DNA of 64,000 nucleotides, taken from positions 248,001 through 312,000 of the forward strand of contig OZ237743.1 of NCBI GenBank assembly GCA_965178125.1, in the 5' to 3' direction. The notes beneath the pieces are model-generated. The model searched no databases and was not told the DNA's origin. It worked only from the letters and a program-made list of their open reading frames with translations. Below, piece by piece: positions 7,687 through 48,300 of the stretch (position 1 is the stretch's first letter; each line of letters starts with the position of its first letter). The position numbers and the translations under genes are program-made. This stretch comes from Bilabrum cf. latius (lineage: Eukaryota).

Positions 7687-8179
7687 CTTGCGAATATCAG
7701 CGGTCTGCTGGATCTGCCGTCTACGTATAGATATATACGATCAATTTGTAATCTGGTCAGCAACACATGCCTAAAGTCTGCAAGATTGTTCTGCTGTTGC
7801 AGTTCTGGAAATAAACCAGAGATACTCAATAACTGCACGGAACAAATACGAACATGTTTTTCTCCTGGTGGGGGAGATGGACCCTTTATGGGCCCTAGCC
7901 ATAGCACATAGTGCTTTGGCTTTATTCTCCCTTCCTATGGGCTGGGAGAAGCCGACGCCTGGATTGGCATTGTCGGCTGCACCGGGTTCGGTGCCTGTGC
8001 TGGTTGAGCAGCACAGCCCTGTTCAGGCGTCCTGGAGTGTCGTCTGCGCAGCGGAAGAAGAGCTAAATAGCTCTCGATTCCACTCGAGATCCCTGCGGGG
8101 GCTGCGAAGTGGTTATGGCCCGTTCGCCGATGTGCGCGGGAAGGTCTACGACCAAACGGTCGGGAAGGTGTTTACCGCC

Positions 8180-8484
8180 TCCGACGCCCGTACTGTCATT
8201 TCAGCGCGGGATTTCTTCCCTTGTGGAGAAAATGGGTTCTTTGAAACCCTAGCCTTAGCAATTAACGCTTTGGCGCCGATCTACCTGCCGGAGAGCAGGG
8301 CGATTGGTTTCTGCACCGTTGGTGCCACCTATTCCGACGCCCGTACTGTCATTTCAGCACGGGATTTCTCCCCTTGTGGAGAAAATGGGTTCTTTGAAGC
8401 CCTAGTCTTAGCATCTAATGCTTTGGCGCCGATCTACCTGCCGGAGAGCAGGGCGATTGGTTTCTGCACCGTTGGTGCCACCTA
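8180..8484. repeat. Tandem duplication of a 153-bp unit (2 near-identical copies)
   Basis: tccgacgcccgtactgtcatttcagc...ggtgccaccta starts at 8180 and again at 8333. Confidence 0.9.
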
Positions 8485-9014
8485 TATCAGCCGGGCCCGG
8501 GAACACCGAGCTCGGGAAGACTCCCAGGAGGGGGAGCCTCGGAACCATTCACGTATTAACGCTGACAGTTCCAGAGACGAGCATGATTGTGTGCATGCTC
8601 GACCCTCAGAGGGATCGCGAGTCCGGACGATCCTGGAAGTGACGTCGGAGGCTGGAGGGGCACTCCGTGGTGGGTCTGGACCGCGCATTATGCCGGGCCC
8701 ACGCAGTATGCCTGTGTGTCTACGGATATCCGAAATAAAGGCTCCGGGACTGCTGCGAAGGAGGGCTTGAAGGCGACAAAGGGAGGTCCCAACATCAGGG
8801 CCGGTATATGGGGGGCCTTTGGTCTGAAAGGGTCGGGGGTCTTGTAGTCCTCTTATGAGGGCTCCTACCGCTGCAGGTGATCACCTGAGATATGGTGCAT
8901 CTGTGGCGGGTTCGGTAACTTAACCCAACAATGTATTTCTGTATTTCTGTATTTTTTCTCGCACGGGAAGAACAGAGCATCTGAAGCCTTAGTTAGGAGC
9001 CACCGCCAAAGTAA

Positions 9015-12000
9015 ATGTCCGTATCAAACAAATTGTTGAAGGCCGCGGCTGAGGCATCTTCCAGCAGCCCGATGAGCTCCAAGCATGGTGCCATACTGGT
9101 CTCTGGGGGCAAGGTGGTTGCTGTTGGTGCCAACTCTAGACGTACATATGCCCGTGGTGAAGTTGTCTGCTCCGTAAGTTTTAAATTTCGTTTTTCCCCA
9201 CTCAGCTTGTCGTTTCGTGTCGAGGATGGTCACCTGTTCGCTTGCTGAATCGATATCGCAGGTCCACGCTGAGCTGGATGCCCTGTTGTCGCTCAAGATC
9301 AACGGTAAGGCGTGCCGTAGCGGGAAATAGACTGCTTTAAAGTATAAAATAGCCATGCGTAGCTACGTTGATACATTGGTCTCTCTCACTTTCGTCACGC
9401 AGGTCGCCCGCTACCGGACAGCTTGTTTGCACAGGCAGAGTTGGACTACGACAACGTATGGCCCGACTACAAGACGCAGGTGTTCGGAGACAACCGGGGT
9501 GCGCAAATATTTGAAGAACCAAGGGGTGGGAAGGTGTCGGGTCCTGCCGCGTCAGATGCGTCCGCGCTACCTTCGGAACAGCACGAGCACGCCGGCTGGG
9601 AGCGCGCTCTGATGCAGATCGACAGCGAGCAGAACCAGAGGCAGCGCGTCGAAGGGGCCGCAGCGAAATCCCGCAGAGGAGGACCCTCCTCCGCAGCTGC
9701 TGGCAGCGAGGAGCACCACCTGCTGCAGTCCTTCTTCGAGGCCCAGGAGGCAGGCGCCGTCACCGTGCCTGCTGCCTCCAGTAAGCATTCGGCCACTGCT
9801 GCTGCTGCTGCTGCTGCTGGTGGAGCGGTTGCTGGCTCCGGCGCTAGTGCCAGCCCCAGCAAGCGCACCGAAGGAGGATACAAGGTCGCAGGCCCTGAGC
9901 ATGCTGTCGATGGCGTGTCGATGCAGAAGAACCGACGCAAGAAGAAGAAGAAGAGGGGGAAGGCTGCCCCTGGCAGGGCCTTCCTCATGACACCCGAGCA
10001 GGAAGCTGCGTGGATCGTCCTCGCACCCCACGTGCCCCCCGCTCTTCCGGCACAGAAGCAAGCCCCTGCTGGTGGCTCAGGGGCGGCTGGTGCTTCTTCC
10101 GCTGTAGTACACCGCTCAGCCTAGAGCGACACATCCGCAGCCGTAGCTGCAGCTGTAGCTGTAGGTGGGGCAGGAGCAAGGACAGCCGATTCGGCCGTAG
10201 GTGGGGCCAATGCCTGGAAATCGGGAGACAGTTCGAAGAGAGTCCATCACCAGGGCGAGGATGAGGACGCAGTCGATGCAGGGCGGCCCGGCGGGCAGAG
10301 CGCCGGGCCGCCGTTGCATTTGCTGGGCCGGGGGTCAGAGCCGTGCTTTTTACCAGGCGAACCACGGCTAGAAGCTCTATTACCACGGCGACCGGCCCCG
10401 CGCCAAGGGTGGAGCGCGGGGGTCGGGCCGGTCGTCGTGGAACAAGGCGCGGCAGCAGCAGCAGCTGCAGGGGCTGGGGCAGTCGCTGGACGTGCGCTCC
10501 TCGAGAGCACTCATGCGGAGACTGACCGGTCTGGCAGAGCAACAGCAGAGCACTGGGAAGGGCCGAGGGCCGGGGGCCTCCGCTGCCGCTCGGTCCACCA
10601 GCGGATCCGTCCTTCCGGTCGCCTTCGCCGCGCTGGCGGGTGTGGGCACTCGGTACGGCCCAGCGGACGACGTGACCACGTAGGGGCTGTCTGCCGAAGA
10701 CGCGGTGCTGGAGGCAGAGGTGCGGGGAGCCAAAGGAAAGCCGGTGCGGCAGAGGAAGCTGCGGCGCTGGCAGCAGCAGGCCCAGAGGCGTGGGCCAGGC
10801 GGCGCTCTGCAGGCCGGGTGCAGCAGCAGCACAAAGCGGGACGGGGACAGCAGCGTGGGGGGTGCGTCCCGGTCGACTGGGTCAGGCGGCAGAGTGACCA
10901 CTGCCACACCGACCGCAACGCAGCCTGCAGGGCCGCCGTCGAGGCTCTCGCCCGATCCAGCCAAGCCATGCAATGGGTTCAACGGGCGCAAGGGCAGTTC
11001 CGAGGCGCGCTCCCGGCAGCCGCTGCGGGCCGAGAGTCGTGAGTCCGACGGTGCAGGCATGGCTGCCGAGGGATCCTATGGTGATGAGCGGCTGGCTGCC
11101 TCGACTCACCACGAGGCTGGACATGCGGCTACCGGCAGCGACACCACTGCGTCGCTGGAGTCGACTCCGGGCAAGGCTGCGGGTGCCGGTGCTGGCATCG
11201 CTGCAGAAGAAGACATCGAAGCTGCCCCTGCCGGAAGCGACGCTGAAGGCAGCGAGGGCGGAGCGTCTGGAAGCGACAGCGACAGCGATGAGCTGAAGGT
11301 TGGCACCGGCAGCATCGGTGAGCGGAGCCCAAGCCCCGCATCGAGCTGTAGTGGCGGGATTTCGCGGCCCGATGCAGCCAAGGAGGTGGGCTCTGGGGGC
11401 AGCAGCGTTGGCAGGGGCAGCAGCGCCAGCGATCGCAGTCGCAGCAGCGACGCTTTCTCATCGTGCCCATCACAGCCCAACTCTGCCTGCTCCGCTCCCG
11501 CCACCACCGGGCTCACCGCCGCGAGGCCAACCGGTGTCATCAGGCCGAGCAAGGCGGCTCGCGCCGCCGCCCGCAAGTAGCGCAAGGCAGCCAGGGCGGC
11601 CCGCAAGCTAGAGAGGGTGCGAGCAGCCGTCGAGCGCGCCAGGATCGCAGACAGCCTCGGGTCTGGGCAAGCCCACCGCGGATCAGGAGGCGGGGCCGGC
11701 TGCGGGCTCGGGCTCCGTCGGAGCAAGGCCAAGGGCAGCGCGACCTCCGTTGCGGGTGGCCCGGCCTCTGCGAGGGGGCACGGTCAGCCGTTTTTGCGAG
11801 CTGCGGGCGGCCGACGCGGCCGCAGGTGCGGGACGAGCGTGTCTGGCCTGTCCCTCGGCGACCTGGACCCCGGCGTGGGGGCGGGGGGATCCCCCTGGGG
11901 GACTCGCAGCAGCGGGGGTGACAGCGGCAGCTTTGGGGGGGCGGAGGACGCTGGGTCGGATGGTTTCCCCGGGGATTCCTTCGGCGGAGAGGGTCCCGGT

Positions 12001-13212
12001 GCGGGCAATGCCGGGGCTAGTGGCAGCGCCGGCGCGCAGCCACTGGCTGGCGGGTCCCTGCCCGGCGCTCTGTCAACGGTACCCGCCATCGACGGGCGCA
12101 CGAGCCGGTCCTTGAGGAAGAAGGCCCTTCGGAGGGCGCGCGCTCTGAAAGGGGCTTCCAATGGACAGGTGGACCCCAGGGACCCCCGTCAGTGGAAGAA
12201 GCAGCTGGCGGCTGGCCGGGCCAGGCAGGCAGAGCTTGACCACGCTGCCGCTGCCAAGCGCTCAGGCCTGGCCGAAGCCGCTCGTGCGCTAGCCAAGTCC
12301 AGGGCAGTGGCGCTTCGAGGCGGGGGCGAGTACAGGGCTGTCGGGGCCGGTGGGAAGTTCAGTCCGTGGGATCCTGTGGCCGGTGGCATGGGTGGTGGGG
12401 CAAGCGACGCGTTCTCGGGGGAGGCCTCTGCGGCTGCTGCTGCTGCCGGGAGGAGCAGCGGAGTAGGGCGGGGGCGGCAGAAGAAGGGCAAAGGTCAGGC
12501 AACGGCAGGCGCCCGTGCCTCGGCTCTGGCGGGCCTGGACCCAGGCTGGCTGGCCTCGAGGGTGTGGAACGACCTCGTGTTCGGAGACAGCGGCGCCTTC
12601 GCGACCCTCCGGCCGGGGGACCGCTGGCTGGACAAGCAGCCCCGCAAGGTGCGTGAGTTTCTGGATTCCGTGCCGGCCATGACCATGGTGGTGGTGCGCC
12701 GGGCCCCCCACGGGCTGGGCGGATCGCGGGCCAAGGAGCGCAGGCGGAAGGATCGGATCAGGCGCGCCACCCAGCTGGGCATCACCGTGGGTGAGCTTCC
12801 CGAGGACCCCATCGGGTTCAGCTACTCTAGACCGTGCGCGCACTGCCTGGCGATCATCAGGAGGTGTCCCTTCATCAAGAGGGTGGTGTTTTCCACGGGC
12901 AACGGGAATTCCACCCTGTCTCTGCACTCGTCACGCATGAGCACGGGCCACTTGTCGCACGCCCAGCGGCTCGCATGGGCCCGCAAGGTCGAGGTCATGA
13001 CGGGGGGCAACGCGGCGGAGCGATTCATCCGAGGGTTCGTCGGCGGGCAGGGCCCTGGCCTGGGAGGCAGTGGGAGAGCGGCGCGCGCCCGCGTCGAGGA
13101 GGCCTCGCGCGCACCCAGCGCCTTTCTAGCGACCGGGGCGCTGGGGCGGGCTGTCAAGTCCAAGGGGAAGGGAGGAGGGGCTTCCCATGGCGGGAGAAAG
13201 GGTGTGAAGTGA
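9015..13212 (+). CDS. Cytidine/dCMP deaminase-like zinc-binding protein with a very large low-complexity insertion; exons 9015-9173, 9262-9304, 9403-13212, with a frame switch near 10347-10357
   Basis: KHGAILVSGGKVVAVGAN, then spliced VHAELDAL, and distant YSRPCAHCLAII...IKRVVFST at ~12830. GT-AG introns 9174-9261 and 9305-9402. In-frame TAGs at 10122, 10369, 10681, 11578. Ends at TGA 13210-13212. Confidence 0.75.
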
Positions 13213-13329
13213 TTACAAAGATAAAATTTCGATACAAGTTATAAATGCCTTCAATCCAGTTCGGTTCCGGTCTGCGTGCAGCAGCTGGGGATGACGTTGG
13301 CCACACATTGCCTTCGCCTCGCTAAATTG

Positions 13330-14890
13330 ATGTCGTCTCGCCGACCGCGTGCTGGTTCTAGGTAGACTGGAAGTCTGAAACATGCACAAGAGCCCTCAAA
13401 CGGGGCACGTAAGGAGGCATTCGCGCACTCTGCTGAGCCCGACGAGACGGAGCAGAAGCTGAATCCACGCACCTTGTCTGATGATATGGAGTTCTTCGGG
13501 ACTCCGGGGGCAATCATTGTGACATTTTTAATCCATGCAACGGTTCTAGTGATCGCGTGGGGGCACGATGATGCGTTCTGGCCGGATGCTAGCAAGCTTG
13601 CGAGCTTGCTCTCATCCAAGGGATGGATCGAGCTATCAAGTCTGGTCACGCTTGAGGCAGCAACCGCCTTGCTCGGCTGGTGGGTATTCCACGTATTCCT
13701 CCACCTCATACTCCCTGCTCAAATTGCTGATGGAACGGAGCTCCGAAATGGCGAGCGACTACCGTACCGCCTAAACGGTGAGTGCCCTGAATCGTGCGCT
13801 TATCCTGGTGTGCAGCGCCCGAATCTGCACCCTATCTTGATCGAGTCGTAAATTACTCACTCGCCTTCCCGCAGCTACTCTGTGTTACTTTGTGTCGATT
13901 GGTGCTGCAATCGCCGCACACTCAGGCGGTCTGCTCGAGTTGCGATGGATTGCGGCTAACTTCCCGAGTCTCGCTGTCACGGCGATGGTTTTGTGCGACA
14001 TTGCTTCTATCGGCTTGTACCTATGGTCCTTCCGGCCGACCTCTGACGGCAGGCCGGTCATGCTCGCCCTCGCCGGCAACTCTGGCTCGGTGTGGTACGA
14101 CTTGTTCATCGGGCGGGAGCTCAACCCCCGGATTCAGCTGCCCCTGCTGCCTGCCCTGGACCTCAAGTTCTTCAACGAGCTAAGGCCTGGATTGCACGGG
14201 TGGATCCTCATCAACCTGTCCTTCCTCCTGGTGCACATGGACAACGTGGCCAAGCAGACGGAGCACGACACCCCGTTTGGACTGGGCATTACAGGGGAGA
14301 TGCTATTGGTGCAGGTCTTCCAGGCGTATTACGTGCTCGATTCCGCCATCAGCGAGCGGGCCATCCTGACGACCATGGACATCACCACCGATGGGTTCGG
14401 CCTCATGCTGTGCTTCGGGGATCTGGCTTGGCTCCCATTCACCTACTCCCTGCAGGCAGCATACCTTGCCACCAACCCGCTGCACTTCCCATTCTGGGCA
14501 ATCGCGCTGGTACTACTGGCCAGCTGCATCGGCCTTTACATCTTTAGAGGTGCCAACGGTCAGAAGGACCTGTTCCGTCGCAACCCCAGCCACCCAGATG
14601 TGAGAGACCTCGAGACGATTCAGACCGCAAGGGGGACGCGTCTAATCGCGAGCAGCTGGTGGGGACTATCGCGGCACATCAACTACTTCGGAGACTGGAT
14701 CCTGGCCCTGGCATGGTGCCTGTGCACGGGATTCAGCGCGCCAATGACGTACTTCTACGCGGGCTATTTCGCGGTGCTCCTTGTCCACCGGGAGAGGCGG
14801 GACGACCACGCGTGCCACAAAAAGTACAAGGGGGCATGGGACGAGTACAGGAGGAGGGTGCCGTGGAGAATCGTCCCGGGCATCTACTGA
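13330..14890 (+). CDS. ERG24: Delta14-sterol reductase (ERG24/LBR/TM7SF2 family); intron 13778-13874; alternative in-frame ATG at 13291
   Basis: Motifs LNPRT..MEFFG, GRELNPRI, DLKFFNELRPG, TTMDITTDGFGLMLCFGDLAWLPFTYSLQA, WWGLSRHINYFGD and KKY..AWDEY..RVPWRIVPGIY. One in-frame TAG (13363) in the N-terminal leader; TGA stop. Confidence 0.92.
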
Positions 14891-28691: not shown

Positions 28692-29186
28692 ATGCGCACG
28701 CTGGCATCGCTTTGTCTGCTCACAGTGCTGTTGCCATTAGCTATGGGTGACTCGCCATCGAGAGCCCACCGAGTGCGCCGCAGGACTCGGACAACGGAGC
28801 TCAAGAAGTCTCCGTCGGTTATTGATCCCAAGCTCGACGCAATGCCGTCAGACGCCAGTGAGAGATTATTGGTCTCCTTCACTAGCTCGCTTGTCATACG
28901 AGCTTATACATCGTATCCTTGCGCCGACTTCGCTCTCATCGCAGACGATGCGGGCCCCAACGCCGCGCGAACCCACCCGCCGTTGTGCAGCAAGTGTGAA
29001 AGATCAGTTGCATCGCGCTTTCCTTTAAGATTTACTACTGAACTTGAATGTCACAGCACCAGGCACGTACACCCTGACGTGCATCCTAAGTTGCCAAAAT
29101 GCACTGCCCGCCGATTCAACTCCCGCACTAATGACCTGCGTACTAGTAGAGCGCACTCTGTATGCCCCCCTGCCTCGGCTGCTTGA
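28692..29186 (+). CDS. Possible small secreted protein (signal-peptide-like start, CxxC); 3' end uncertain
   Basis: MRTLASLCLLTVLLPLAMG hydrophobic leader; possible in-frame intron 28858-28944. The ORF end overlaps the convergent LRR gene. Confidence 0.3.
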   Translation: MRTLASLCLLTVLLPLAMGDSPSRAHRVRRRTRTTELKKSPSVIDPKLDAMPSDASERLLVSFTSSLVIRAYTSYPCADFALIADDAGPNAARTHPPLCSKCERSVASRFPLRFTTELECHSTRHVHPDVHPKLPKCTARRFNSRTNDLRTSRAHSVCPPASAA

Positions 29187-30632
29187 GCTGCGTCTAGCTA
29201 TTTACCTGACACGAGCCCTTTCCGTTCTGCCCCACCTGCCATCACCCCGAGCCGCAGTCGCTTCGCCAACTCTAGAGGCCTGCCCTCTGCTGCAGCTCGC
29301 CACACTAGCCCCGCATCCCGGTGAGCCTGCGCAGCAGTCCTATGTCGTACCAAGGCCCACAGCCTGGACTGCCTGGACTAGTAGTGCTGCAGCCTGGTCA
29401 GCATGAGAGGTACAGTTCTTGCATACTTACCAGGAACACATGAAGTGCGCCAGTCGTAGAACACTATGCGGGGATTGGCCACTACAGCATCCAGGTTCCG
29501 GTCGTGCTGGCGACTGAATTCAGCCTCATACCTCCAGGAATTGAGCCCGCTGTATCCGACGGATATCGACAGCAGCGCCCTGTTCCGCCTGATTGCAGCC
29601 CACAGCAGACATAACGGAAGTCGTGTTTTCTCCGGTATCATGTCATAGAACAGCATCAGGTGCCTGATACTCACGTTCTCACACACGATCCTTTCCACCT
29701 GTGCACCGAGGGCGTCGCTGGCTTCTGGCGACTTGGATATGAATGAAAGCAGCACCTGCCTCAGTGCCCGATGCGCCACCAGAGTATCAGCCCACGCCAC
29801 CAGCTATTCTTTGTTCACCACGCAGTCTCCCGTTGACAAATACCGAAGGCTTCTGTTGGTCAGCATGCCCTTTGCTATCGGGGCATTGCGCCGATACAGG
29901 TTTCTGTAGGCTGCCCCCAGAGTGATTCCAGAACGAGCATCCCACCCGAGCATACCCATCAGACTCAGCGCATACAAGCTGCACCGCGAGTCTCCTAGCA
30001 CCTACCCGAGCGACTCGAACAGATCCTGAGGGGCTCCTTCTAAGCACTGCCTACTACTGCTGCTCTGCAAGATGAGAGCCTCAAGGCGATTCGACCTTCC
30101 TGAATGCAGCATCGACGGAGCCAGTGCTGCCATGGCGCCTGGCTCCCACCTGCAGTCCCCCAGATGCAAGCAAGAGAGATGATGACCCTCAACGTCCAAA
30201 CATACCATCTCGCAAAGCAACCTGGCTGTCGGAACATCGATCGTCTCGTCAACCAGCCGCAGCGACTTCAACCGGATGCCATCCGAGGGCAGCAGCGCCA
30301 GTAACTGCCTGAAGCTTGCCATTCCAGATCGGTGCGGCATTGTGGCACTTGCATACCCCTGCCTGACCGCCCACAGGAACTGCCAAACCAGCGTGCACTC
30401 CGGCGCGATATCGTTCCTGCCTTTCTTGTATGTCTCGTGCATACCGTCAGAAGAAACCTGCTAAACTTACAAGATATATTTTAGTTTCGATGAAGAACTT
30501 GACCCCAACAAAAATGCGGTGCCGGGGGCACTCGGAAACTACTAGTGTTGGACAGTGTTTGCTCCTCACGATCGAGGTGATAGCCCTATACGGGGCACGA
30601 TAGACACCTGGCACAAGTTTCTCTTGGAGCAT
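29051..30632 (-). CDS. RNI-like/LRR-like protein, paralog A (short first exon plus intron)
   Basis: LRR-like segments LKSLRLVD, LSCLHLGDC, LEALILQ. In-frame TAGs at 30002, 29804, 29378, 29198; TGA 29051-29053. Colinear with paralog B. Confidence 0.7.
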
Positions 30633-31385
30633 GAATTTTATCATTTTGGCAAATCTTGGAGCCTACTGTCGTGTGTGCAGTGCTTAATGCTGCATGCTGT
30701 TTTCTGGTGATCCGGAGCCACATTCATGGTCACCCTAGGGCCTAGGCTATCCAATGAGTCAGGCTGCCACCAGGGGACTGCATCAGGTTGTTCCCGGCAT
30801 GCTTCGGCCCCTTTCTTGTAGAGGCCCTCTTGTACTTCTGCGCCTTCTTCTGGTCCTGATTCGGATAGTCTACCATGGACTCCGTCGATGGACCACAAGC
30901 AGCAACACCCCCACGAAGGAGCAGCCCAGCCTGCGGAGCCCGTGGCGTGAGCTCGCTGTCCTGTACGAGCTATCCAGCGCGAGCTCCTCCTAGGGAGATT
31001 GGTGTCATTAGCCGCTCTCTCTCACTCCTCCGCATCGCTACGTCGCATCTGATCCTACACCTCGAGCGGGTCCTGCGCCCACCGCGCGACCTCAATCTCA
31101 GAGACCTTGTTGGCCTCACCAACTCTAATGCTACAAATCCTCTTCCCACCTACGGACAAGGTGTTGCCGCGTTCTCCTTCTTCACAGAGCCATCCTCATC
31201 GCACAGACGCTTATCATCTCATTTGACGTCAACAACGAATCAGACTCTGTCTCCTTAAAACCATGCATACCCGAACCAGGTACAATGGGTGCTGCACAAG
31301 ACAGCATAACCACGATGGTGGACTTTTGTCCGCAATCATACAGATGAAAGATTCGTCACTTCCATATTGCATGCTGGATCTGGTT

Positions 31386-31495
31386 GAGGAGAATCAAAAC
31401 GCTTGTACCGTGCTGTGCAGAGGATCGTAGAGGGGGCGTAGAGGAGAATCAAAACGCTTGTACCGGGCTGTGCAGAGGATCCAAGAGGGGGCGTA
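31386..31495. repeat. 55-bp tandem duplication (2 copies, few mismatches) in the spacer between the LRR paralogs
   Basis: gaggagaatcaaaacgcttgtaccg...gagggggcgta starts at 31386 and again at 31441. Confidence 0.85.
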
Positions 31496-31600
31496 GCGGC
31501 AGGAGCAGAAGGCATCGCTGCACGCTGTGAAGAATGCGTGGAATAAGTACCCTGCACGTTGTCAGGTGCTGAGATGGCGAGGAACGCATACTATAGTGAT

Positions 31601-33194
31601 TCACGACACCAAGCACGAGAACGTGGGCATACCTTCTGTCAGGCCACGATCAATCGCCCTTCGGTTCACCTCTCGCGCAACTGACCGGCGCACTAGCAGC
31701 ACGCATTCCCTATGCCCGCCTGCTTTGGCCGCTTGCCCCGCGTCTAGCAAGCTGCCTGACACGAGACCTTGCCGTTCCGCGCCACCTGCCATCACCCCGA
31801 GCCGCAGTCGCTTCGCCAACTCTAGGGGCCTGCCCCCTGCTGCAGCTCGCCACACTAGCCTCGCATCCCGTTGAGCTTGCGCAGCAGTCCTATGTTGTAC
31901 CAAGGCCCACAGCCTTGACTGCCTGGATTGGTACTGCTTTAATCGAGGTAACATAACGGGCTCGACTCTCTCGTTCTTTTGGGTCGAGGCCACCGTGCAC
32001 CAGTCGTAATGTATAATACGGGGATTGGCCACTACGGCATCCAGATTGCGGTCGTTCTGCGGGACGTAGTACTATGGACTATAGTAGAATTCGTCTCCAA
32101 TACATCCGACCAATATCGACAGCAGTGCCCTGTTCCGCCTGATGGCAGCCCGCAGCAGGTGCAACGGAGGTGGCACTGGATCCCATCCCCGCTCCATGTC
32201 GTACAACAATATCAGGTGCCTGATGCTCACGTTCTCACGCACGATCCTTGCCACTGGTGCACCGAGCGCAATGCGGGCTTCGTTCGTCACAGGATGAAAG
32301 GACACAAGAAGCTGCCGCAAGGAATAGCTCGTGGCCAGAGCATCGGCCCACGCGACCAGCTGCTCTGTGTTCACTATACACTCGCCAGTCGACAAATACC
32401 GAATGCTTGTGTTGCTAAGCATGCCCCTGGCCACCAAGGCATTGCGCCGATACATGCAAGTCCAGTCCACGCCTTCAACCGGACCATAGGGGTGACTCCA
32501 TCCGAGCATGCCCACCAGGCTCAGCGCATACAAGCTGCACCACGAGTCTCCTAGCACCTATCCAAGCGACTCGAACAGATCCTGAGGGGCTCCTTTCACC
32601 GATGGCTCGCCAGTAGTGCTCTGCAAGAGGAGTGCTTCCAATCGATTCGACATCCCCGAGTGCAGCATCGACGGAGCCAGTGCTGCCATGGCGCCTGGCT
32701 TCCACCTGCAGTCCTCCAGATGCAAGCAAGACAAGCCATGACCCTCAACGTCCAAACATACCATCTCGCAAAGCAGCTTGGCGGCCGAAACATCGATCGT
32801 CTCATCCACAAGACGCAGCGACTTCAACCGGATGCCATCCAAAGGCAGCAGCGCCAGCAGCTGCTTGAAGCCTGCTATGCCCGATCCGGAAGGCATTGTG
32901 GCGCTGGAGTATCCCTGCTTGATCGCCCACAGGAATTGCTGAAGAGATTCACATTCGGGGGCAAAATCGTTCCTCCCTTTCTTGTAGCTTTCATGCATGC
33001 CGTCAGATGAAACCTGCATCGCATCACAACGTAAAGTGTCTTATAGAACAATAAATTGAACCCCAGCAAACATGCGGTGCAGCGGGCACACTTTGCAAAC
33101 AGTTCGCCCAGCGCCTCACGATCGAGGTGATGCTCCTATACGGGCTTCGATAGGTATCAGGTGTTGGCCATTCATATACCATGTAGTCAGCCAT
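31601..33194 (-). CDS. RNI-like/LRR-like protein, paralog B
   Basis: Highly similar to paralog A along its length, with the same intron position (SITSI|VSSDG). In-frame TAGs at 32558 and 32072; TGA 31601-31603. Confidence 0.7.
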
Positions 33195-34768: not shown

Positions 34769-37700
34769 ATGGATGCTATGCGAAAATTATTTAATACATC
34801 AGATAGTGACGACGACGACTCGCCAGTATCTGCGCCAGCGGCTGGCCGCAGCGCTGCAGCAGCAGACGTGAGAATGGCATTGCGAAACCATATACTTTGG
34901 CGCTGTTCTTGTCCATTCTACTCGCCTTTGCATGCTCTTAGCCGTTCATGTACAAATGTTTTGCGCAGGGAATTGAGTCAGGCCCTTCGCCACGGGCAGC
35001 AAGCGGCTTCTGTGGGCTAGAGAATCAGTGAGTAGGATCCAGAGTTGTATTCGCTCGCTATCGTGCGCCTGAAGCTGCTGCACTCGTAATTGATCGTCTT
35101 GAGAACTGCATTTGTTGCAATTTTTGTGCGTCTCGACCCGCAGGGGCGCGACATGTTACATGAACAGCCTCTTGCAGGCCTTGTTCATGACGCCGGAGTT
35201 TCGGAGCAGGCTGTACGGGCTGCCAATGGAGCACCTGCACGTAGACAAAGTAAGACGATTGTAGTGTGCGCTATTTTTCATCATTGCTAACTGCCTCAAT
35301 TGAAAGAGCTATTGCCGTCGACCTGACGATTCGTGCAGATGGAGGCCTACGAAGCTGCAGAGGCAGCGGCAAAGGCCGCAGCAGATGCCCCGGCCAAGTC
35401 CAAGTCCAGGTCCGGTGATTCCTCCGGCGACCCAGTGGAAGATGCCGAGAAAGGGTCAGAGGCTGCTCCTGCGCCAGCCCCGCCGAAGCCGCACCGTTTC
35501 CGCGAGATCATCAGCCTGGAGCTGCAGCGCCTGTTTGCTCGCCTAAGCATCCTGGACCGGAAGGACCTGGACACGACGGAGCTCACCCGAAGGGGCTTCA
35601 ACTGGACGGGAAACGAGGGCGGGGTGCAGCACGACGTGGTCGAGCTCAACCAGAAGCTGTACGACGCCATCGACAAGAGCCTGCTTGCCCTCAAAGAGCC
35701 CGCGGACCAAGACATCATCAAGAGCCTGTACACCCTGGACGGAGGCGCGCGCATGCAGTGCCTCAGCTGCAAGACCCCTCGGGACACCAAGGAATCCCAC
35801 ACGGTGACCAGCGTCCAGGTGCAGGGCCACGACGACCTGGTTTCCTCCCTGGCTGCGCGATGCAGGCCCGAGCTAATGGATGAGGTCAACTGCCCCGCCT
35901 GCGAGGAAAAGAGGCCTACCCTGCGGTGGGAGAAATTTGTGTCTGCGCCCCCGGTCCTGCTGCTGAGCCTGAGCCGGTTTGTGTTCGACATGCAGGTGCT
36001 GGACCGCGTGCGGCTCAACAGCAGGCTGGAGCTCCCGCTTGTGATCGACATGAGGCCTTTTCTTCCCGGTGGCACTGTCAACAAGCTGCAGGAACTGCTG
36101 GGCACGGCAGAATACCGCTGTGAGGAGGCTTCCAAGGCTGTGAGCGCGGCAGAAGGCGGCAAAGCCAAGGAGCAGGTAGAGGTTGCGATGGCTTCGGCGC
36201 GCGCCGTGGTGGACTCGATCAAGGCCAGGCTCGGGAAGGCCCTGCACGCCGCGCGCTCGTCCTGCATTTGGGCCTCTGGGCTGGCCACCCACGAGGGGCG
36301 ACTGAAGTCCGAGGCGACCCTTCGGGCCATCGAGGCCCTGCCGCGGGAGAGGCAGGCCCTCGTCTACGACCTGCACGGCGTGGTCATACACAGCGGCAAC
36401 GCGCACCACGGCCACTACACCGCGAAGATCAGGGACGTGCTCGGCGAGGGGATATGGACTGCTCCTGACGAGTCGTTCAAGCAGGCGAGCGAGTCGGTGG
36501 GGAAGCGAATGTTCGGCTCTGGCCATGTGTTTGGGCCAGGGGAAGGGCCGGTGCTGGCCTAGGGAAGCGGCGGCGACTGGGGAGGCAGCTCCGGCGGCGG
36601 CTCTGGCTCTGGTTCCGGCGGCGGGTCCGGTCGCGACGAGCTGCTTGCCGTGAAAATGCAGGCCAAGACAGACCCGTCCTCTCCGCTGAGGCACGTGCGG
36701 CAGGCCGTCGCGAGCCACGGCAAGGACCCGTCGACCGGGATCCGCAAGTGCAAGATCTCGCAGGTAGGCGGGGCCCTGGCCAAGGTTGGCGCCAAGAAGG
36801 GCTGGAACAAGCTTTACAAGCAGAAATGGGGCACTCTCAAGCGGTTTCTGGACGCTTGCGACGAGGATTTCGTGGTAGATGAGGACAGCAAGGAGGTCAT
36901 GCTGATCGGGGAGGACCCCAAAGGGACCGACGCCCAAGCGGATGACGGGTGGAGGCGCAAGGGGGACGGCAAGGCGGCCAAGACCGCCGACCCGAGCAGC
37001 AGCGGTCGCGGAGGCAACGGCGGTGATACAACAGGAGCAAAGAGCGGAGACGGCAACAGCGGATAGGCCCCCGCCCACCCCAGCGGCATGTCTCCAAAGG
37101 AGCTCAAGGAGACAGCCTTCAGGGCAATGCACACCCGCCTTGCCGCGAGGTACGGGCGATGGTTTTCCTTCGACGACAGTCGCGTCACGCCCGCCGGCAT
37201 CTCTGACGTGGAGGACACGTTCTCCGGGTCTGCTTCGGCATATCTTGTCTTTTACCGCAGCAGGGCGCTGGGCCATCCGGCTGTGGAGGGCAAAGGCAAG
37301 ACGCCACTGAACGGTACCTCTGGCGCTGCGCAAGAAGAGGAGTGGCGCAAGCTATTTGCGGATGCCTCTTTGCTGCCAGACGCCCAGAAGAAGATCGACG
37401 AGCACAAGGCGGCGGTAGCACGACACATAAGCGACGCAGAGTACGACTGCCTGGAGGATCCCCCGGAGATGCCAGAGGATGAGAAGGCCGAGGCTGGTGT
37501 TCCTTGTGGTGCCGGGGCGGCGGCGGCATCATCCGGTGCTGAAGGAGCCGCAGGCGATGAGTCTGGCGCCAGCGCAATTCGTTGGAGGCCCGAGGCACTG
37601 CTAGAGTACATCAGCACGCACCCCAAGATAAGCGCGCCGCCTGCAGCACCTTCTTACTGGCTGAAGCGGATCCGGGCGGAGAACGAGACCCTTTTGGCCC

Positions 37701-40700
37701 ACAGGGCGGTGTACGAGCGACTCAGCAACCAGATGACCCTGACTGTGCTGCCTCCGAGTGCGCTGGCAGTAACACCCAAGGGACTGACGCTCAGGGTCAA
37801 CCCTACGCTGCCCACAGGGGATGCCGTTATGCCGCCGGTGGGTGACGCGCAGGCCTTTGCCTACAAACCCTGCGCCGACCGCGCGGTCGAGGTGACAATA
37901 GACCTCCGCCGGCCGCTCAAGCACCTTCTCACCACGCTCAAGCACGCCTTCAGCGACGCGAAGGGGCTTGGTCTACCCGCCTCGCAGCAGGACTGGCGCC
38001 TTAATCTCTTGGGTGAGACTGAGGTCGAGGAGGCCGACGGGGACGGCGGCAGGGGCCCCGCGGCCTCGGGAGCCGGCGCTGACGACGACTCGAAGCCCCA
38101 ACCAGCTGCCCTCAACAAGTCGCTGCATCCGTTGAGCGGGGTCCCCGACGACACTCTGCTGGGCAAAATCGCGCAGACGATGGGCATGTCAGAGGCCGAG
38201 GCCAAGGGCTTCAGCTCTGGCGACAGAGCGCTCGCAACCCTGCTCGCGCAGCGACGTGTGGTCAAGCTGCAGCAGGAGGTTGAGCTGCTGCGAGCCAAGG
38301 GTAAGCCCACAGCTGTGGTCCAAAAAGACCTTGAGGCTGCCAAGCAGACCGCCGTCAAGGGCCCCGCTGTGCCCGACGCCCTGGAGATGGTCCTGGAAAC
38401 AGCAGCTGAAAAGCCCATGCTTGAGTACGCAGAGACACTCGGGCACGGGGCCGTTCTCTTGATGTGGGACGGCATCCGCCTTGGTGACACGATCGTTGTG
38501 CCCGGGGGGGAGGGCGAGCCCGTGCAGCTCTCCGGGGAATACCTGTGGCAGGACAAGGCCGAGCTAGACGAGGCAGCGGATCGGGCCGGTGGCGGCTGGA
38601 AGCAGGCTGGCGGAGGTGGCGCAGGCGGGCCTGGTAAGCGCAAGACGCCCAGTGCCCCCGTCCATCGCACGCCAGTCAGCCTTGTGGTACCAGCCACTGC
38701 CACGCTGCCAGAGCTAAGGGCGGCCTTTGCGCAAAGGGCTGGCCTCGTGGATGACGCCGGGGGTGCGGCAGCAGGTAGCGTGGCTGCTTGCGACTCGACT
38801 CCCCTTGGTGTGCCCTCGGCCGCGGCGATGGCAGCAGGGAAGAACCTGATCCTGTCCCGCGTGTCCTACGAGCGCGGCAAGAAGAAGCTGAGTGTGGTGC
38901 ACGACAAGAGCGTGGGACCGCTGCACGCACTGCGGCCCGCAACAATCAAAGAATACCAGTTCTTCAATGCTGCCACGGAGCTGCTGATCGAGCAGAAACC
39001 GCCAGCAGGCAGAGAGCAAAAGGGAATCCACGCGGTGCCGAACCCACTCGCAGACGCTGAGATGCAGAGAAGGGCCTTGCAGGCCGAAATCACCGTGCTG
39101 TGGCAGGCCGGGGGCTTCCCTCCATCGGGACCGAGGACAGAGAAGGACATCAAGTCCAAGCACCCAGAGGTGGAGAACGTTCGCCTCGACATCACGAGGG
39201 ACGCGGACGGCATCGTGGTCGAGGCTTCTGCCCGGCTGACCATGACGGTCTCGCGTCAGAATCATGTGTCTGACGTGAAGCAGATCGCGGCTGGTATCCT
39301 AGGAGCAGACCTTGGCAGCATCCTGGGCGGCGGACGGTGCAGGCAAAACCAGGACGGTGCCCTGGTGGATGACGAGGAGCTGACCATTTCCCAGGCGGGC
39401 TTCGGGTCCGGCGAGAACTCCTTGCAGGTCGAGCCTGGCGAGGCGCTGGCCAAGGGTGAGATCAACATCAAGTACCAGCTGCTGGTGGGCAACGATCTCG
39501 GCCCGCTTCCCAGGGGTGGGTACAGGAGCCAGGAGCGAGAGGTGGTCGTGGACCAGGGGATCTCACTGGCGGATCTCAAGGTGGCCATTCTCGCCAATTC
39601 CGCCAAGCACGGGGATGACTTGGGCAAGGGTGGCGTTGAGGCAGCCCGCGCCGCTGACTTCGCCACGCTCGCTCAGAACCGTCGGCTGCGTATGAGCAAC
39701 TGGATGGGTGAGGCCACCGACCTCCTGAAGAAGGAGCACATTCCGTTGGCGCGGTCCGATCTGAGCGGGGCATCTACAGTGCTGCTTGAGGAGGGCAGGC
39801 TGCCTGTGCAGGGCGAGCTTCACCTGAACTTTGCCCTGCTGTGCCCGCAGTACTCGCAACGGGTACTTGCGCTATCGCCGGAACAGGGCGGTCTTCCCAG
39901 CGGTGCCCTCGTGGAGCTTGACGAAGAGCGGAAACAGGCGCAGGCGATCGCCACAGAGGAGCTGGCCAGGCTGGAGGAAGGGCGGAAGGTGCTGAAGGAG
40001 GCCGACGCTGGCCAGGCAGCGAGCGACGGCGGGGACGGCGGCGGCTTGCTTGGGTGGGCGGCATCGGGGCTTGCTGCCGCGGTGTCTGCAGTGGCAGGTG
40101 GCCCGGCTGGGGACGGGGGCAGCACAGATGTCCCGAGGGATGCCCCGGCTGCGTCCAGCGACGGTGCTGCGCCCGTAGCGGCGGCGCCCGGTGAGGAGCT
40201 TCCTCCCCCAATGGTGAGGAGGCACTCAGCAGACAGGAACCCTCCCAGGCAGTCGGAGCCGCTCGACTACATCCGCCGAGTGAGGGCTGCCTCCCTGTGG
40301 CCCCTGCCGCGCGTCGTTGCCAACGAGAGCTGGACGGTCCGCAGGCTGAAGGAGACCGTGCTCGAGGACCCGCACGTGTGCGCAGCCTACCTGCGGGCTC
40401 AGCGCCCCGGCGAGATGTTCGACCCGTGGGCTGGGAGGTTCGTGCAGCCAGCGCCAGCTGAGCAGCCTGCAGGGAGTGATGCTGCGGCAGCAGCCAAGGC
40501 GGACAGGGAGAGCAAGGAGCAGTATTCTTCGTCTGGTGAATCTCCTGCCGACGTGCAAAAGGCGGCGGCGGCCGCCAAGAAGGACCCGGTGCAGGAGCTG
40601 CGAGATGAGGTCGATCATCAGGTGGCTACAGCTGACGTCGACCCCGAGGCCTCCCGCCCAGCCGCCCTCTCCCACTGGGGTTTCACCCCGGAGCACGTCC

Positions 40701-42124
40701 GCATCCGCGTGGTGGGCCAGCACGAGGTACCGGGCCGTGTGCTTAAGCCGGACCTTAGCAAGCTGCAGCGGTGCGGGGTAAAGCAGAGCCAGGTACTTCT
40801 CGCCATCGACATCCTACCGAGGGAGGAGCCGGACGAGGACGAGGTGCGTGGAGACGAGGTGTTCCTTTGGGTGCAGAGGAGGCGACCCAACCCGTTGGTG
40901 ATGGCGCGAAGGGCCAGGGAGCGTCAAGTGGCCAAGCTTGACGACGCCAAAGCAGCGGACGCCAAAGGCAAGGGGAAAGGCAAGGGCAAGGGCAAGGGCA
41001 GCGGGAAAGGTCGCGTGGAGGCGAGCATGGAAGACGTGGAGGACCTAGCCGTGAGGGCATCGTCTGCTATGGACACCAGGGGGTCCGTTTCGCACACGGT
41101 GGCAGTCGACAAGGAGCTGGCTGAGGCACAGGAGGTTATCTCTGCGTCCAAGCAGGCATCGCAGGGTTCCCAAGAAGGCGAGGGCGATACAGCAGATTCA
41201 GCAGCGGCAGCGGCGGCAGGTGATTCAGGGGATTCAGGAGAAGTGCAGCCTTTCTAGCTTGGCAGCGGGCCATTCAGGCCGCTGCAGGCCATCAGCGGAT
41301 AGAACTCGCCGATGTGGCCGCTGGAGTGCGTCAGGGTGCGGGCCTCACTCAAGGGGCAGCCCCTGCTCGCAGACCTGCTCGACGCCCTAGCTTCCTCTGA
41401 AACTTGCAAGGGGATGGACATCGGCAAGCTGCGGATCGCTAGGCTGCACCAGGTGAGACACCAGTGGAAGGAGCTCACGGACCAGGCGCAGCTGGAGCAG
41501 CTGCCCAAGGTGAGGGAAGAGCAGGAGAAGGTCGGGGCATCGTCCTCAGCCGCCGCTGCAGCCCCTACCGGCAGCAATGCTTCGGGTCGGAGGCGTGGGC
41601 GGCGCCGTGGGGGCAACAAGAAGAAGAAGTTTAAGACCTTGCGGGACCAGCCGTGGGGCACTCAGTGCGGTGACGTCATAGCGGTGATGCACGCGGATGA
41701 CGACCCGGAAGGCACCGACGACTGGCTCCGAATCGAGGACTACTCGTCTGCCGTGAAAACCATGCGCAAGAGGCAGGAGAAGGCTCTTGAAAAGAAAGCA
41801 GCGCGTTGGGAGGGAGGCGGAGGTGGGGGGGGTTCTAGGCCCAGGCAGAGGGAGGTCGCATTGCACATCGGGTACGACTCTGACGAGTTCGACTTCGAGC
41901 AGGTGCACCAGGAAGACGACGGAGACGGTGATGATGACGCCGGATCTGAGCCTGGTGCCGCTGGCAAGGAGGACTCTGGCGATACCGGTGCCAGTGCAGA
42001 GGATGTCGCGGCTGCTGGGGGAGCGGCCGCCGCCCCTGCAGAACCTCCAGGTGCCGAAGGCGATGAGGACGCCGATGCTCGAATGGCGAGGGAGCTGCAA
42101 GCTCAGTTTGACGCCGAAAATTGA
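34769..42124 (+). CDS. USP40-like ubiquitin-specific protease (C19) with C-terminal UIM-like DARMARELQAQF; exons 34769-34867, 34969-35027, 35144-35249, 35339-42124
   Basis: Spliced Cys box GLENQGATCYMNSLLQALF, QHDVVEL, His box GVVIHSG..HHGHY, then WFSFDDSRV and SAYLVFYR. The insert WNKLYKQKWGTLKRFL recalls USP40. In-frame TAGs at 36560, 37064, 41255, 41300; TGA end. Confidence 0.9.
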
Positions 42125-45394: not shown

Positions 45395-48300
45395 TCACTT
45401 GATAGTAGTCTCATCGGAAATTTGCAAGGCATCTCCAAGGTCGCCCTTCGTGCGAGCAGCAGCTGCCTGCCTGCGCATTCTCCGCATCATCATGTCGCGG
45501 CGCACGCGGAACACCGGCAGCACCCTCCTGGCCCAGCGCTGAATAGCAAGAATCCGAGAGTACTTTGTGTTCCGCTGCTGCACGTTCGTCACGCAGAACA
45601 GCAGGTCATCTGCTCCGATTGCTGCATCGTACGGCGGGCTCGTGTACACGTACGGCAGGGCCCTTCGCTTTGGTACCCACCAGTTGTTGGGCAACCAACG
45701 CATCATGCGGGGCCCCAGCTGGCCATACCGCCCACCTGGCAGCGGCCGGTTGCTTGCCTAGGGGCAAGACTCGTTGCGGCGTCGCCTTCTGCTCTCGTCC
45801 CGGGCGGATCCACCCGAGCCTATCGCACCGCTGGCTCTAGTGCTGCCAATGCCACTGCCACTGCCACTGCCACCTCCTTCCGGTGACATGCCACCAGAAC
45901 GAAGCAAGGCGCGCACAGCAGCTACTGCTCGCCGCTTAGCCACAAATCTTACAGATACATTCTGCAGCCTTGCTTCCGCTCTTGCTGTTTGGCTGCCCAG
46001 CGATCTCGCACCTGAGCCACTGGAGTGCACGCCCTGACTCATGCGAGTGAGGGTTCGCCCGTGCCTGAAGATCGCTACCGGAGTCAGCCCGTACTCTTGC
46101 TGCATCCAGGCACACACGGCCCCATAGCGAGGCATGGGCCACGCCCACGGGCCCCACTCGTCTCCAGACAGAGCAGCTGCGGCCACGCCGTGAGGGGTCG
46201 CGCCTCCTGCAGGCGGGGGCCCGTGCGGGTCGGCCGACCTCGCGTTCTTTAGGATGCGGTCGGCTTCCTTGACGGCCTGCGCGTAGGCAGCCTCCCTAAT
46301 TTTCTGGCTGATCAGCACGGAGGGGTCATACCTGGGACGCTGGGCCACCTGGAAGCCGTACCTCTTCTGCACCATTCCGCACGGCCCGACGCAACGGCGC
46401 GCGGCGTCATACGGTAGAGACACCTGTACAACCCGCCCGTCCACATCAGACAGCAGCCCAGTGATCACCTGCGGCTTCAGAGGGTCGAACAGGGCCGATG
46501 CAGTCAGGGCTTCCGCGATGGTTGACGTGTACACGGAGCCGTTGGCCACCTCGGGCTCGACCGCAGCAAAGGAGGCTTCCGTGGAGCCAACGGTGGGAAA
46601 TAGCTCGGCAGAGAGCTGCTTTCCCTTGTGGGCCTCTACCAGTTCTTCGTCAATACGAACCAGCTCGCAGGCGAGCTGGCCCTTGCGGCCATCGCGCAGC
46701 CCTCTACTCGCCAACTCAGCGCGTGCCCTGCTGTCTGAGGACTAAGTGTTGGTCATTGCCGCCTCTGTCGCCTCCTCCAAGACAGCCTCAGCATCCCGAA
46801 GTGCCTGTTGCTTTGCCCTGTGGCGAGTGCGATGCACCGACGACAGGGATGCAAACGGATCGCAGGTCGAGCGAAGCATGCAGCATGCGAACCCAATGCA
46901 GCATACGAGCCCAAACAGAGAAGCAAACACGTCGCAGCACTCGTCGTAGTCCACCATCCACGCGTACTCTCCGCAGCAGCAGTTACAAGAATTTTCTTCT
47001 TCTTCTTTGCTGGACTCGTCTTCCTTGTCGCCATTGTTGCCGTCTTCAGAGCCCGTGGGATCCCCTTGCGACTCCTTGCCTCTCATAGCAGTACCACTCC
47101 CGTTGCTCTTTCGACCGCCATCAGTCGCACCAGTTCTGGACGCTGGGCCATCCAATACGAAGGGGGGCGGGTGCTGCGCCCTGGAGAGCGCCTGGCTTTG
47201 CTACCCATTCAAGTCGAACAGCACCCTTGAGACCTCGACTGGGTCCTCCCTCATCGAAAACAGCTGCTGCTGGTGGGTAGGCCGCTTCGGGACGGGAGCA
47301 GGACTGCTGCGAGCCGCTGATGAGTTGACCACAATTGGCCCCGCATCGATCGCGGCTGCAACGTGCGCGATGGAGCTTGCGTGCGGGCTGGAGGCAGGTG
47401 TCGCGAGTGTGGGCAATTCCCTATGGCCCTCTGCATCGATCACTTCCTCCATTGCTTTGCTGAAGTGCTTGCCATCGTCGATCTCAAGCTCCTCCTCTCC
47501 CACGTCGGGCTCGTCCATCGTGCATGACTGCGCATCGTCGTCGTCAATCTCTTGGCCAGCCGGCTCAAGGTGCTAATGCTGCTGGCCACTGCTCACCTCC
47601 ATCGCGGCCGATCCTCTGCTCTGCGGTCCACGAGATGTCACCACAGAACCGTGATAGACCTCCCCGTGCGCCCCGGAAATCATGGAGTCGTGCACCTCCA
47701 TGGCTGCGTCGTGGTCCGTGGAGCGCTACAGCAGTCGGGCATTCGGCTCTAGGTCTCGGAGAAATCGTCTGCCTGCCCTGCGAAGGCAATTTGCGATGGA
47801 ACCACAATTGCGCACCTCGTCTACGATGTGAGTAGCGGCAGGTGCGTGCTCAAAGAAATGGGCGCTGTGAGGTGCAGACATGCCCGCGTCTCTCATGATT
47901 GACAGCTTCTGCTTTGCTAGCCAGCGCACCTCCAAGATTGGCCTCATCCTGATGCGAGACCAATACAAAAGCTGCTAAATGTCCAGACTGGGCACAGAGC
48001 CCGTTCTCTCGACCAGCCTAGAGGCACTGTGGTAGTCCAAGCGACCGGGCACTACGGCCAGTTGCCGCTCATCGCGGGCCGTGCGAGCCACATTGATGGC
48101 GTCGTGCATCGCAGCCAGTACGCTGTCTTCGCTTAGCGGCGCCGATCCGGACTCGGAATGAGTGCGCACAAGCTAACCCAGCATCGTACTTGTGCCTGCA
48201 TGCTGTACTTTTGTGTCCAGACCCTTGCCTGAAGAGCGCCTGGCCGATGGGCTGCTGAGGACACGGCGGGGCTGCCCGGCCCGTCGCCGCGACGCCGGTC

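Follow-up and report, generated by a model that had tools for sequence, protein, structure and literature searches.

Conserved programmed frameshifts in nuclear genes are very few, according to PMC11451614. The +1 sites that it covers include those of influenza PA-X (UCC_UUU_CGU) and human PLEKHM2 (UCC_UUU_CGG), the latter with a shift of ~1%, and both are thought to shift while UUU occupies the P site and the A site fills slowly (PMC11451614). Ornithine decarboxylase antizyme is likewise encoded in the nucleus, by two overlapping ORFs whose function requires a +1 shift; the shift takes place at the last codon of ORF1, beside the stop, and senses polyamines, and in some fungi the antizyme slips at UUU, stimulated by the nascent peptide (PMC5009743). 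That source also describes the yeast Ty1/ABP140 (CUU_AGG_C) and Ty3 (GCG_AGU_U) sites, which shift +1 with a sense codon in the A site, and an incidental -1 shift in Bacillus cdd that merely extends the protein (PMC5009743). In Euplotes, protists with an altered genetic code, +1 and +2 shifts occur genome-wide at the stop codons of many genes (PMC10235951, PMC12275403).

The gene described here encodes a predicted deaminase and lies in the window, by which we mean the whole 64,000-nt stretch analysed (G000:C9:248001-312000, from an assembly totalling 48.6 Mb). Judging from its sequence, it very probably gives a full-length 1336-aa deaminase through an obligatory programmed +1 ribosomal frameshift. 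It resembles PLEKHM2 in being a nuclear gene, and both PLEKHM2 and PA-X in the proposed combination of a P-site UUU with a slowly filled A site. The first-pass annotation had compared the geometry of the site with that of PA-X; this part of the likeness stands, but the YCC_UUU_CG motif is absent, the window gene reading UGC_UUU_UUA and re-pairing, as proposed, on UUU rather than UUC. The shifts of PA-X and PLEKHM2 add an alternative tail, whereas that of the window gene would complete an enzyme, and it may require a shift rate above the roughly 1% of PLEKHM2. With antizyme the gene shares a nuclear location, two overlapping ORFs and a function that would require +1 slippage, but its product is a deaminase and its A-site codon is a sense codon. 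The ORF1 stop at 11040 lies ~230 codons (~690 nt) beyond the site, which is thus not a shifty stop of the antizyme or Euplotes type. A sense codon in the A site is also found at the Ty1/ABP140 and Ty3 sites, which involve other codons and another gene family. These yeast sites depend on rare budding-yeast tRNAs. The host is, like Euplotes, a protist with an altered genetic code and, as proposed, a +1 shift; unlike in Euplotes, there is no stop at the site, and the long ORFs of the window, of 900-3,458 codons, run unbroken.

The host and its deaminase gene

The window shows no long ORFs unless TAG counts as a sense codon; they then reach, for instance, 3,458 codons (20 of them TAG) and 2,516 codons (23 TAG), and TAA and TGA serve as their stops. 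The residue most frequently facing TAG is Gln (83 of 205, all frames pooled from alignments to diverged paralogs and relatives), and a tRNA with a CUA anticodon, whose D arm resembles that of Gln tRNA, is encoded on C23 (L203; G000:C23:907607-907679). We regard TAG as a sense codon in this organism, most likely for Gln; a literature search for a nuclear lineage with sense TAG and with TAA and TGA as stops gave no match. Genome GC is ~60%. Also identified were two tRNAs on nuclear contigs called Ile(GAU) by ARAGORN (L209, C32:91173-91245; L240, C4:952092-952164), which could be miscalls or a true oddity; A34 is usual for Ile in eukaryotic nuclei, and Ala and Thr tRNAs with A34 are present in this genome.

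The deaminase gene lies on the plus strand and begins with an ATG at 9015. Exon 1 (9015..9173) supplies the deaminase fold with its first helix and its KHGAILVSGGKVVAVGAN strands, and exon 2 (9262..9304) contains HAE at 9265-9273, the zinc-binding His and catalytic Glu. The intervening intron 1 (9174..9261, 88 nt, joint 9173-9262) and the following intron 2 (9305..9402, 98 nt) are both of GT..AG type, and the joint of each was found in 3 of 3 RNA-type runs. Exon 3 carries frame 0 (ORF1, 9403..11042) through a low-complexity linker, with a TAG at 10122 read as sense, to the TGA at 11040-11042; with TAG as sense, this frame is open over 9372-11042. Removal of the two introns places HAE in the frame closed by this TGA, whereas the second zinc motif, PCAHC (12832-12846), lies in the +1 frame. 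This frame (ORF2) is open from 9991, would be read over 10351..13212 after the shift, and encodes the C-terminal half of the deaminase fold at 12652..12960, comprising an MVVVRR strand, SRPCAHC and IKRVVFSTG. At the level of contigs, one spliced mRNA bears both motifs, HAE in its frame 0 and PCxxC in its +1 frame, and the frames and spliced joints confirm the division of the two halves between frames, with closure at TGA 11040-11042, that the first-pass annotation had proposed. The unshifted product is 613 aa long and lacks PCxxC, and the shifted product would comprise 1336 aa. Even in the latter, the HAE and PCxxC halves would be ~1,190 residues apart, separated by mostly low-complexity sequence.

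Although the separate N- and C-halves gave no match to PF00383, intact homologs match this family, with 7 of 8 full-length homologs above the Pfam cut-off. The C-half of ORF2 matches the intact homologs (hhalign probability 95.7, E 8.6e-9), and the window gene possesses both signature motifs of the family, HxE (as HAE) and PCxxC (as PCAHC). From these sequence features we conclude that the gene is a nuclear zinc-dependent CMP/dCMP-type deaminase of the PF00383 family. The nearest solved relatives are dCMP deaminases, followed by TadA/ADAT and guanine deaminases. The dCMP deaminases 2hvv and 4p9c and the TadA 2nx8 share the HAE...PCxxC zinc site and the fold with intact homologs, whose profile matches 2hvv at E 9e-11; the window gene differs from all three in an active site split across frames and in its long linker. 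Compared with a metagenome relative (L002) whose sequence begins ~1.3 kb downstream of the shift site, the C-half shows 68 synonymous and 23 non-synonymous codon changes over 155 codons. This pattern indicates that ORF2 is under purifying selection and, therefore, that it is translated in the lineage. The downstream neighbour is an ERG4/ERG24 gene, an adjacency shared with L002; together with the spliceosomal introns, this argues that the deaminase gene is cellular.

Very long low-complexity inserts are also present in a potassium channel of the BK/Slo type (at least 3,457 aa; window 45395-55768, -) and in a ubiquitin hydrolase (at least 2,265 aa; window 35327-42124, +), and seem general across the genome. 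Just 5' of the deaminase gene, contig depth is very high at window 8800-8955 (13,711 in the DNA run and 476 in one RNA run), marking a high-copy repeat that is partly transcribed. A direct duplication of ~50 codons, in which SDARTVISARDF...GATY occurs twice, lies at window ~8230-8480 within an ORF at 7775-8770, between two divergent genes. Elsewhere, we observed tandem paralogs without a Pfam match at window 29051-33040 (-); farther downstream, ankyrin-kinase and related genes are repeated in an array at G000:C9 ~305000-352000.

The frame break in DNA and RNA

The proposed shift site, CCG TGC TTT TTA C, occupies 10341..10353 (+), with UUU in the P site, UUA in the A site and a T5 run at 10347-10351. 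It is spanned by one DNA contig (X2 rec 8, 9832-13400) with 0 other letters and 0 gaps, and by three RNA contigs (X5 rec 12, 9832-11866; X6 rec 18, 10206-11873; X7 rec 22, 9832-10560) with 0 mismatches and 0 gaps. The T5 run is thus unaltered and unspliced in one DNA and three RNA-type runs, from three studies altogether, although X2 may be the source of the assembly itself and all runs, being identical over the covered bases, possibly represent one strain. None of the runs is recorded as RNA; X5-X7 were taken as such because they are spliced, and run X8 (share 0.05) was left out. By arithmetic on contig depths, the bins containing introns hold only the share expected from their exons, so the spliced contigs represent mature mRNA; a skipped repeat (9787-9831) lies between these and the contigs that cover the site. 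The identity of T5 across DNA and RNA contigs rules out a homopolymer assembly error, and the lack of a splice joint at the site in RNA contigs rules out a major intron. Both observations that the first-pass annotation had named as fatal to its candidate frameshift, reads with T4 in place of T5 and reads removing a 3n+1 intron, were thus looked for at contig level and not found, which lends the candidate sequence-based support.

A rarer splice form was also considered. Some transcripts might regain the frame through a minor 3n+1 intron that uses the TTTTTACCAG acceptor (10356), or through another minor splice form, as the site resembles a pyrimidine tract followed by CAG and rare variants are lost from contigs (a further 59 loose ends and 200 pieces fall outside the listing). 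However, none of the 7 joints listed from the 3 RNA-type runs uses the 10356 acceptor, both true introns are fully spliced, and the region upstream of the site codes in frame 0. With the viral breaks described below requiring no intron, this explanation appears very improbable. Loss of one U from some transcripts through transcriptional slippage or RNA editing, for which the U run would offer a substrate, is less credible still and in our judgement extremely unlikely: none of the runs has a gap listed at 5 in 100, T5 is short and recurs 21 times on the plus strand of the window, and many viral sites have no such run.

To locate the break independently of the motif, a codon-usage change-point model was built from the 13,621 codons of 9 further ORFs in the window. 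Its peak falls at 10341, with ~0.8 of the posterior within 10314-10383, in agreement with the switch in coding composition near the T5 run noted at first pass. The suspicion that UUA is a rare codon was also borne out, TTA being the rarest Leu codon (24 of 1,111). A search for tRNA-Leu genes with one pattern gave no match, and none was retrieved among the 63 of 780 tRNA candidates scored.

Predicted RNA structure flanks the site on both sides. A strong hairpin at 10270..10325 (z -4.3) has its 3' edge ~21 nt before the UUU codon and overlaps the top-ranking window of 94 in the exon (z -3.4). A second hairpin at 10383..10440, with a 16-bp stem, begins ~30 nt 3' of the site, but its z score varies with the choice of window: -4.1 for one picked by hand, -2.3 in another estimate, and -1.1 in a sliding scan. 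In the paralog described below, structure is predicted on the 5' side of the site only, leaving the 3' hairpin without a counterpart there.

Across the genome, YCG TGY NTT (TTA/AAA) has 39 matches, among which only the two deaminase genes combine coding frame 0 upstream with a long coding +1 frame downstream, the motif having been partly defined from these same two genes. One match, L279 (G000:C13:941495-941506), reads CCG TGT CTT AAA in frame within a long unbroken coding ORF, and is either a counter-example or a leaky site with a 77-codon +1 tail. Furthermore, long host ORFs show no avoidance of TTT TTA, with 4 occurrences vs 1.6 expected. The in-frame motif at L279 and the tolerance of TTT TTA make it unlikely that the site acts alone; given this tolerance and the several other site types used in the family, the hexamer is probably not the entire signal. 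Two further comparisons were discarded: a reversed control for the motif (39 vs 98 matches), as the control lacks the TA dinucleotide, and a 274-kb scan for other frame breaks (6 matches), as it missed the window gene's own site.

Viral homologs and the host paralog

Four pattern scans of IMG/VR provided viral DNA loci for comparison. In the first set, of 167 loci read, removal of 26 duplicates and 11 short loci left 130 distinct homologs, of which 24 break in the +1 direction, 0 in the -1 direction, 103 are intact and 3 lack PCxxC. A held-out set from two new scans (135 loci read, 15 duplicates and 8 short loci removed) gave 34 +1 breaks, 0 -1 breaks, 68 intact genes and 10 without PCxxC among 112 distinct homologs. 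Together, 58 of 229 distinct viral homologs with both halves break +1 and 0 break -1, counts that include near-copies; the prediction of direction, declared beforehand, held in the second set at 34:0.

With respect to sequence, the site at L167 (CCG TGC TTT TTA CGA) contains a 13-mer identical to that of the window gene, while L121, L174 and L192 are near-identical (TCG TGY TTT TTA TGG). These cases, together with the +1 break of the paralog, match the expectation at first pass that homologs would keep a break with a TGY_TTT/TTA-like motif. Three others (L041, L086 and L102) break at TCG TGT TTT AAA CGA, and intact kin read CFLGRISMY (L148) and CGFYERVSLY (L150) at the break position. In the first set, TGY TTT TTA occurs in 4 of 24 break windows vs 0 of 7,710 codons of intact genes. 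Viral breaks also recur at ATA AAA G, at GTA GTT C or GTA GGT C, and at NTT with a stop after it, and types such as the first three dominate the held-out set, in which a TGY-NTT prediction fared weakly (4 of 34 vs ~1.6 expected) and a YCG prefix failed (0 of 34 breaks). The break is therefore conserved in place and direction, while the sequence of the site has turned over. Some viral members have a stop codon at the break; those with UUU directly before the stop suggest that UUU occupies the P site and that the next codon is the slow A site. One subgroup (L038, L095, L068) combines two members whose +1 break coincides with the ORF1 stop and a closely related intact one. The shift site lies ~360 codons past HAE in the window gene vs a few tens in viral genes, a distance that excludes an exit-tunnel stimulator made by HAE for the window gene. 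Upstream NTA codons make up 5.5% in broken viral genes and 6.5% in intact ones, only a slight avoidance. An apparent tendency for an NTA codon to come first in the break window (44 of 58) was rejected as circular, since a +1 TAA or TAG forces NTA, and a look-alike peptide after the motif at L256 proved a chance resemblance in a repeat-rich gene read in another frame.

At the protein level, a profile built from two N-halves retrieved 304 proteins, with HAE in 142 of the best 150. Of these 142, 105 lack PCxxC and typically end within 60 residues, though some end for other reasons (P0005-P0007 read into an intron). The window gene's C-F-L is echoed as C[FLVI]L in 21 of the 105 tails, against a mean of 2.1 and a maximum of 8 over 2,000 shuffles, and in none of the 37 intact linkers. 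The nearest Atlas clusters are Nucleocytoviricota proteins of 60-88 aa; for the C-half, the first Atlas cluster is eukaryotic, which we treat as a lead only. For the N-half of the window gene itself, searches found no confirmed viral locus and no phage record. A quick-search tree of the C-half (83 columns, 41 of 103 intact rows kept) intermixes broken and intact members, requiring 9 changes of break status of which at least 3 are forced. The two host paralogs group together (96), apart from the viral TGY-TTT-TTA clade and tied to no viral clade.

Searches of the genome with each half identified only one other copy, on C1, with 47% identity in the C-half; a weak match on C10 (E 0.3) falls outside the homolog set. 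The layout of the C1 paralog is the same, comprising HAE, an intron, a short frame-0 stretch to TGA and a 466-codon +1 frame with PCALC. It also breaks +1, over an overlap of ~16 codons that holds CCG TGT ATT AAA followed by TGT TTT GAA. Either could be its shift site, and the latter aligns gap-free to the window gene (LLSRPCIKCFEAVEP vs LLGRGSEPCFLPGEP). A candidate 124-nt GT..AG intron (GTAGGC..CTGCAG) would also mend the paralog's frame, a further point for the minor-intron explanation raised above, but its GC content of 59% exceeds the 45-50% of both introns confirmed by RNA and of the first intron predicted for the paralog, and it scores best as coding sequence in +1. The short frame-0 product of the paralog closes with SRPCIKC, which resembles PCxxC and lies shortly after HAE (L006:4449-4334, -); from this sequence, the unshifted product might bind zinc alone, or the motif may be due to chance.

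The paralog and the viral genes also bear on whether the break is a strain-specific loss-of-function insertion in a young, still transcribed pseudogene. Mutations that add one T to a run of T are common, the sequencing runs may, as noted, come from one strain, and junction-peptide searches for relatives' DNA across the site scored none of 9 and 413 candidates. Against this, the paralog breaks in the same direction at a similar motif, the expected chance of the motif at its genome-wide rate being ~6e-6 in the paralog's 16-codon window and ~1e-4 in the 350-codon overlap of the window gene (with the motif chosen post hoc). Given also the identical 13-mer at L167 and the 58:0 direction of the viral breaks, we consider a pseudogene as improbable as the minor intron.

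A split enzyme, in which ORF2 is translated from its own AUG (by internal start, reinitiation or a shorter transcript) and the halves assemble in trans, seems slightly less remote, yet still improbable. ATGs are available in the +1 frame at 10210, 10261, 10276 and 10513, the two halves are far apart across the linker, and databases contain both N-half-only and C-half-only clusters. However, 12 AUGs precede 10210 in the spliced mRNA, and one RNA contig covers 9832-11866 at uniform depth. In addition, the +1 frame of the paralog codes for 193 codons before its first Met (score 10.3 vs -33.6 and -36.9), in 41 of the 58 viral ORF2s no Met precedes the conserved strand, and free-standing ORFs would not overlap in the +1 direction in 58 of 58 cases.

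Proposed mechanism and implications

Under programmed frameshifting, most ribosomes would stay in frame 0, halt at TGA 11040 and yield the 613-aa protein without a complete zinc site. A minority would pause with tRNA-Phe on UUU (10347-10349) and the A site awaiting the rare UUA; re-pairing of tRNA-Phe on the overlapping UUU would then make UAC the next codon and give the 1336-aa protein with both halves. By analogy with described sites, slippage from a P-site UUU with UUA in the A site is the reading that we favour, with some reserve. Slippage one codon later, from a P-site UUA, is its main alternative and rather unlikely. The shift is probably aided by its 5' context, be it UGY, the Cys encoded there or the hairpin upstream.

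The deaminase fold needs both zinc-binding halves, and the shift rate would therefore set the amount of enzyme. Since neither half possesses the full zinc site, output would be all-or-none, and frameshifting could be assayed as enzyme activity. We guess, at about even chances, that the shift acts as a throttle, keeping active deaminase low and raising it when decoding slows, for example when the tRNA for UUA is scarce or under stress.

Judged from titles and the beginnings of abstracts, the literature yielded no description of frameshifting in the deaminase family, and the expressed nuclear case of a +1-broken deaminase is new. An expressed nuclear gene, and probably its paralog, thus join a family in which 58 of 229 viral members carry a +1 break. 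This break would account for many of the 60-120-aa 'fragment' deaminases in databases, and the natural site variants and naturally fused members provide a ready series for investigating what drives eukaryotic +1 slips. More tentatively, and with the balance somewhat against it, the family may be a recoding family common to eukaryotic nuclei and giant viruses, in which the +1 shift between HAE and PCxxC is a sensor that turns the enzyme on when decoding stalls. If so, the stall might be triggered by tRNA shortage or undermodification during stress or infection, and, were the substrate tRNA or the nucleotide pool, the result would be an antizyme-like feedback loop for the state of translation, kept through turnover of the site and reassignment of TAG in the host.
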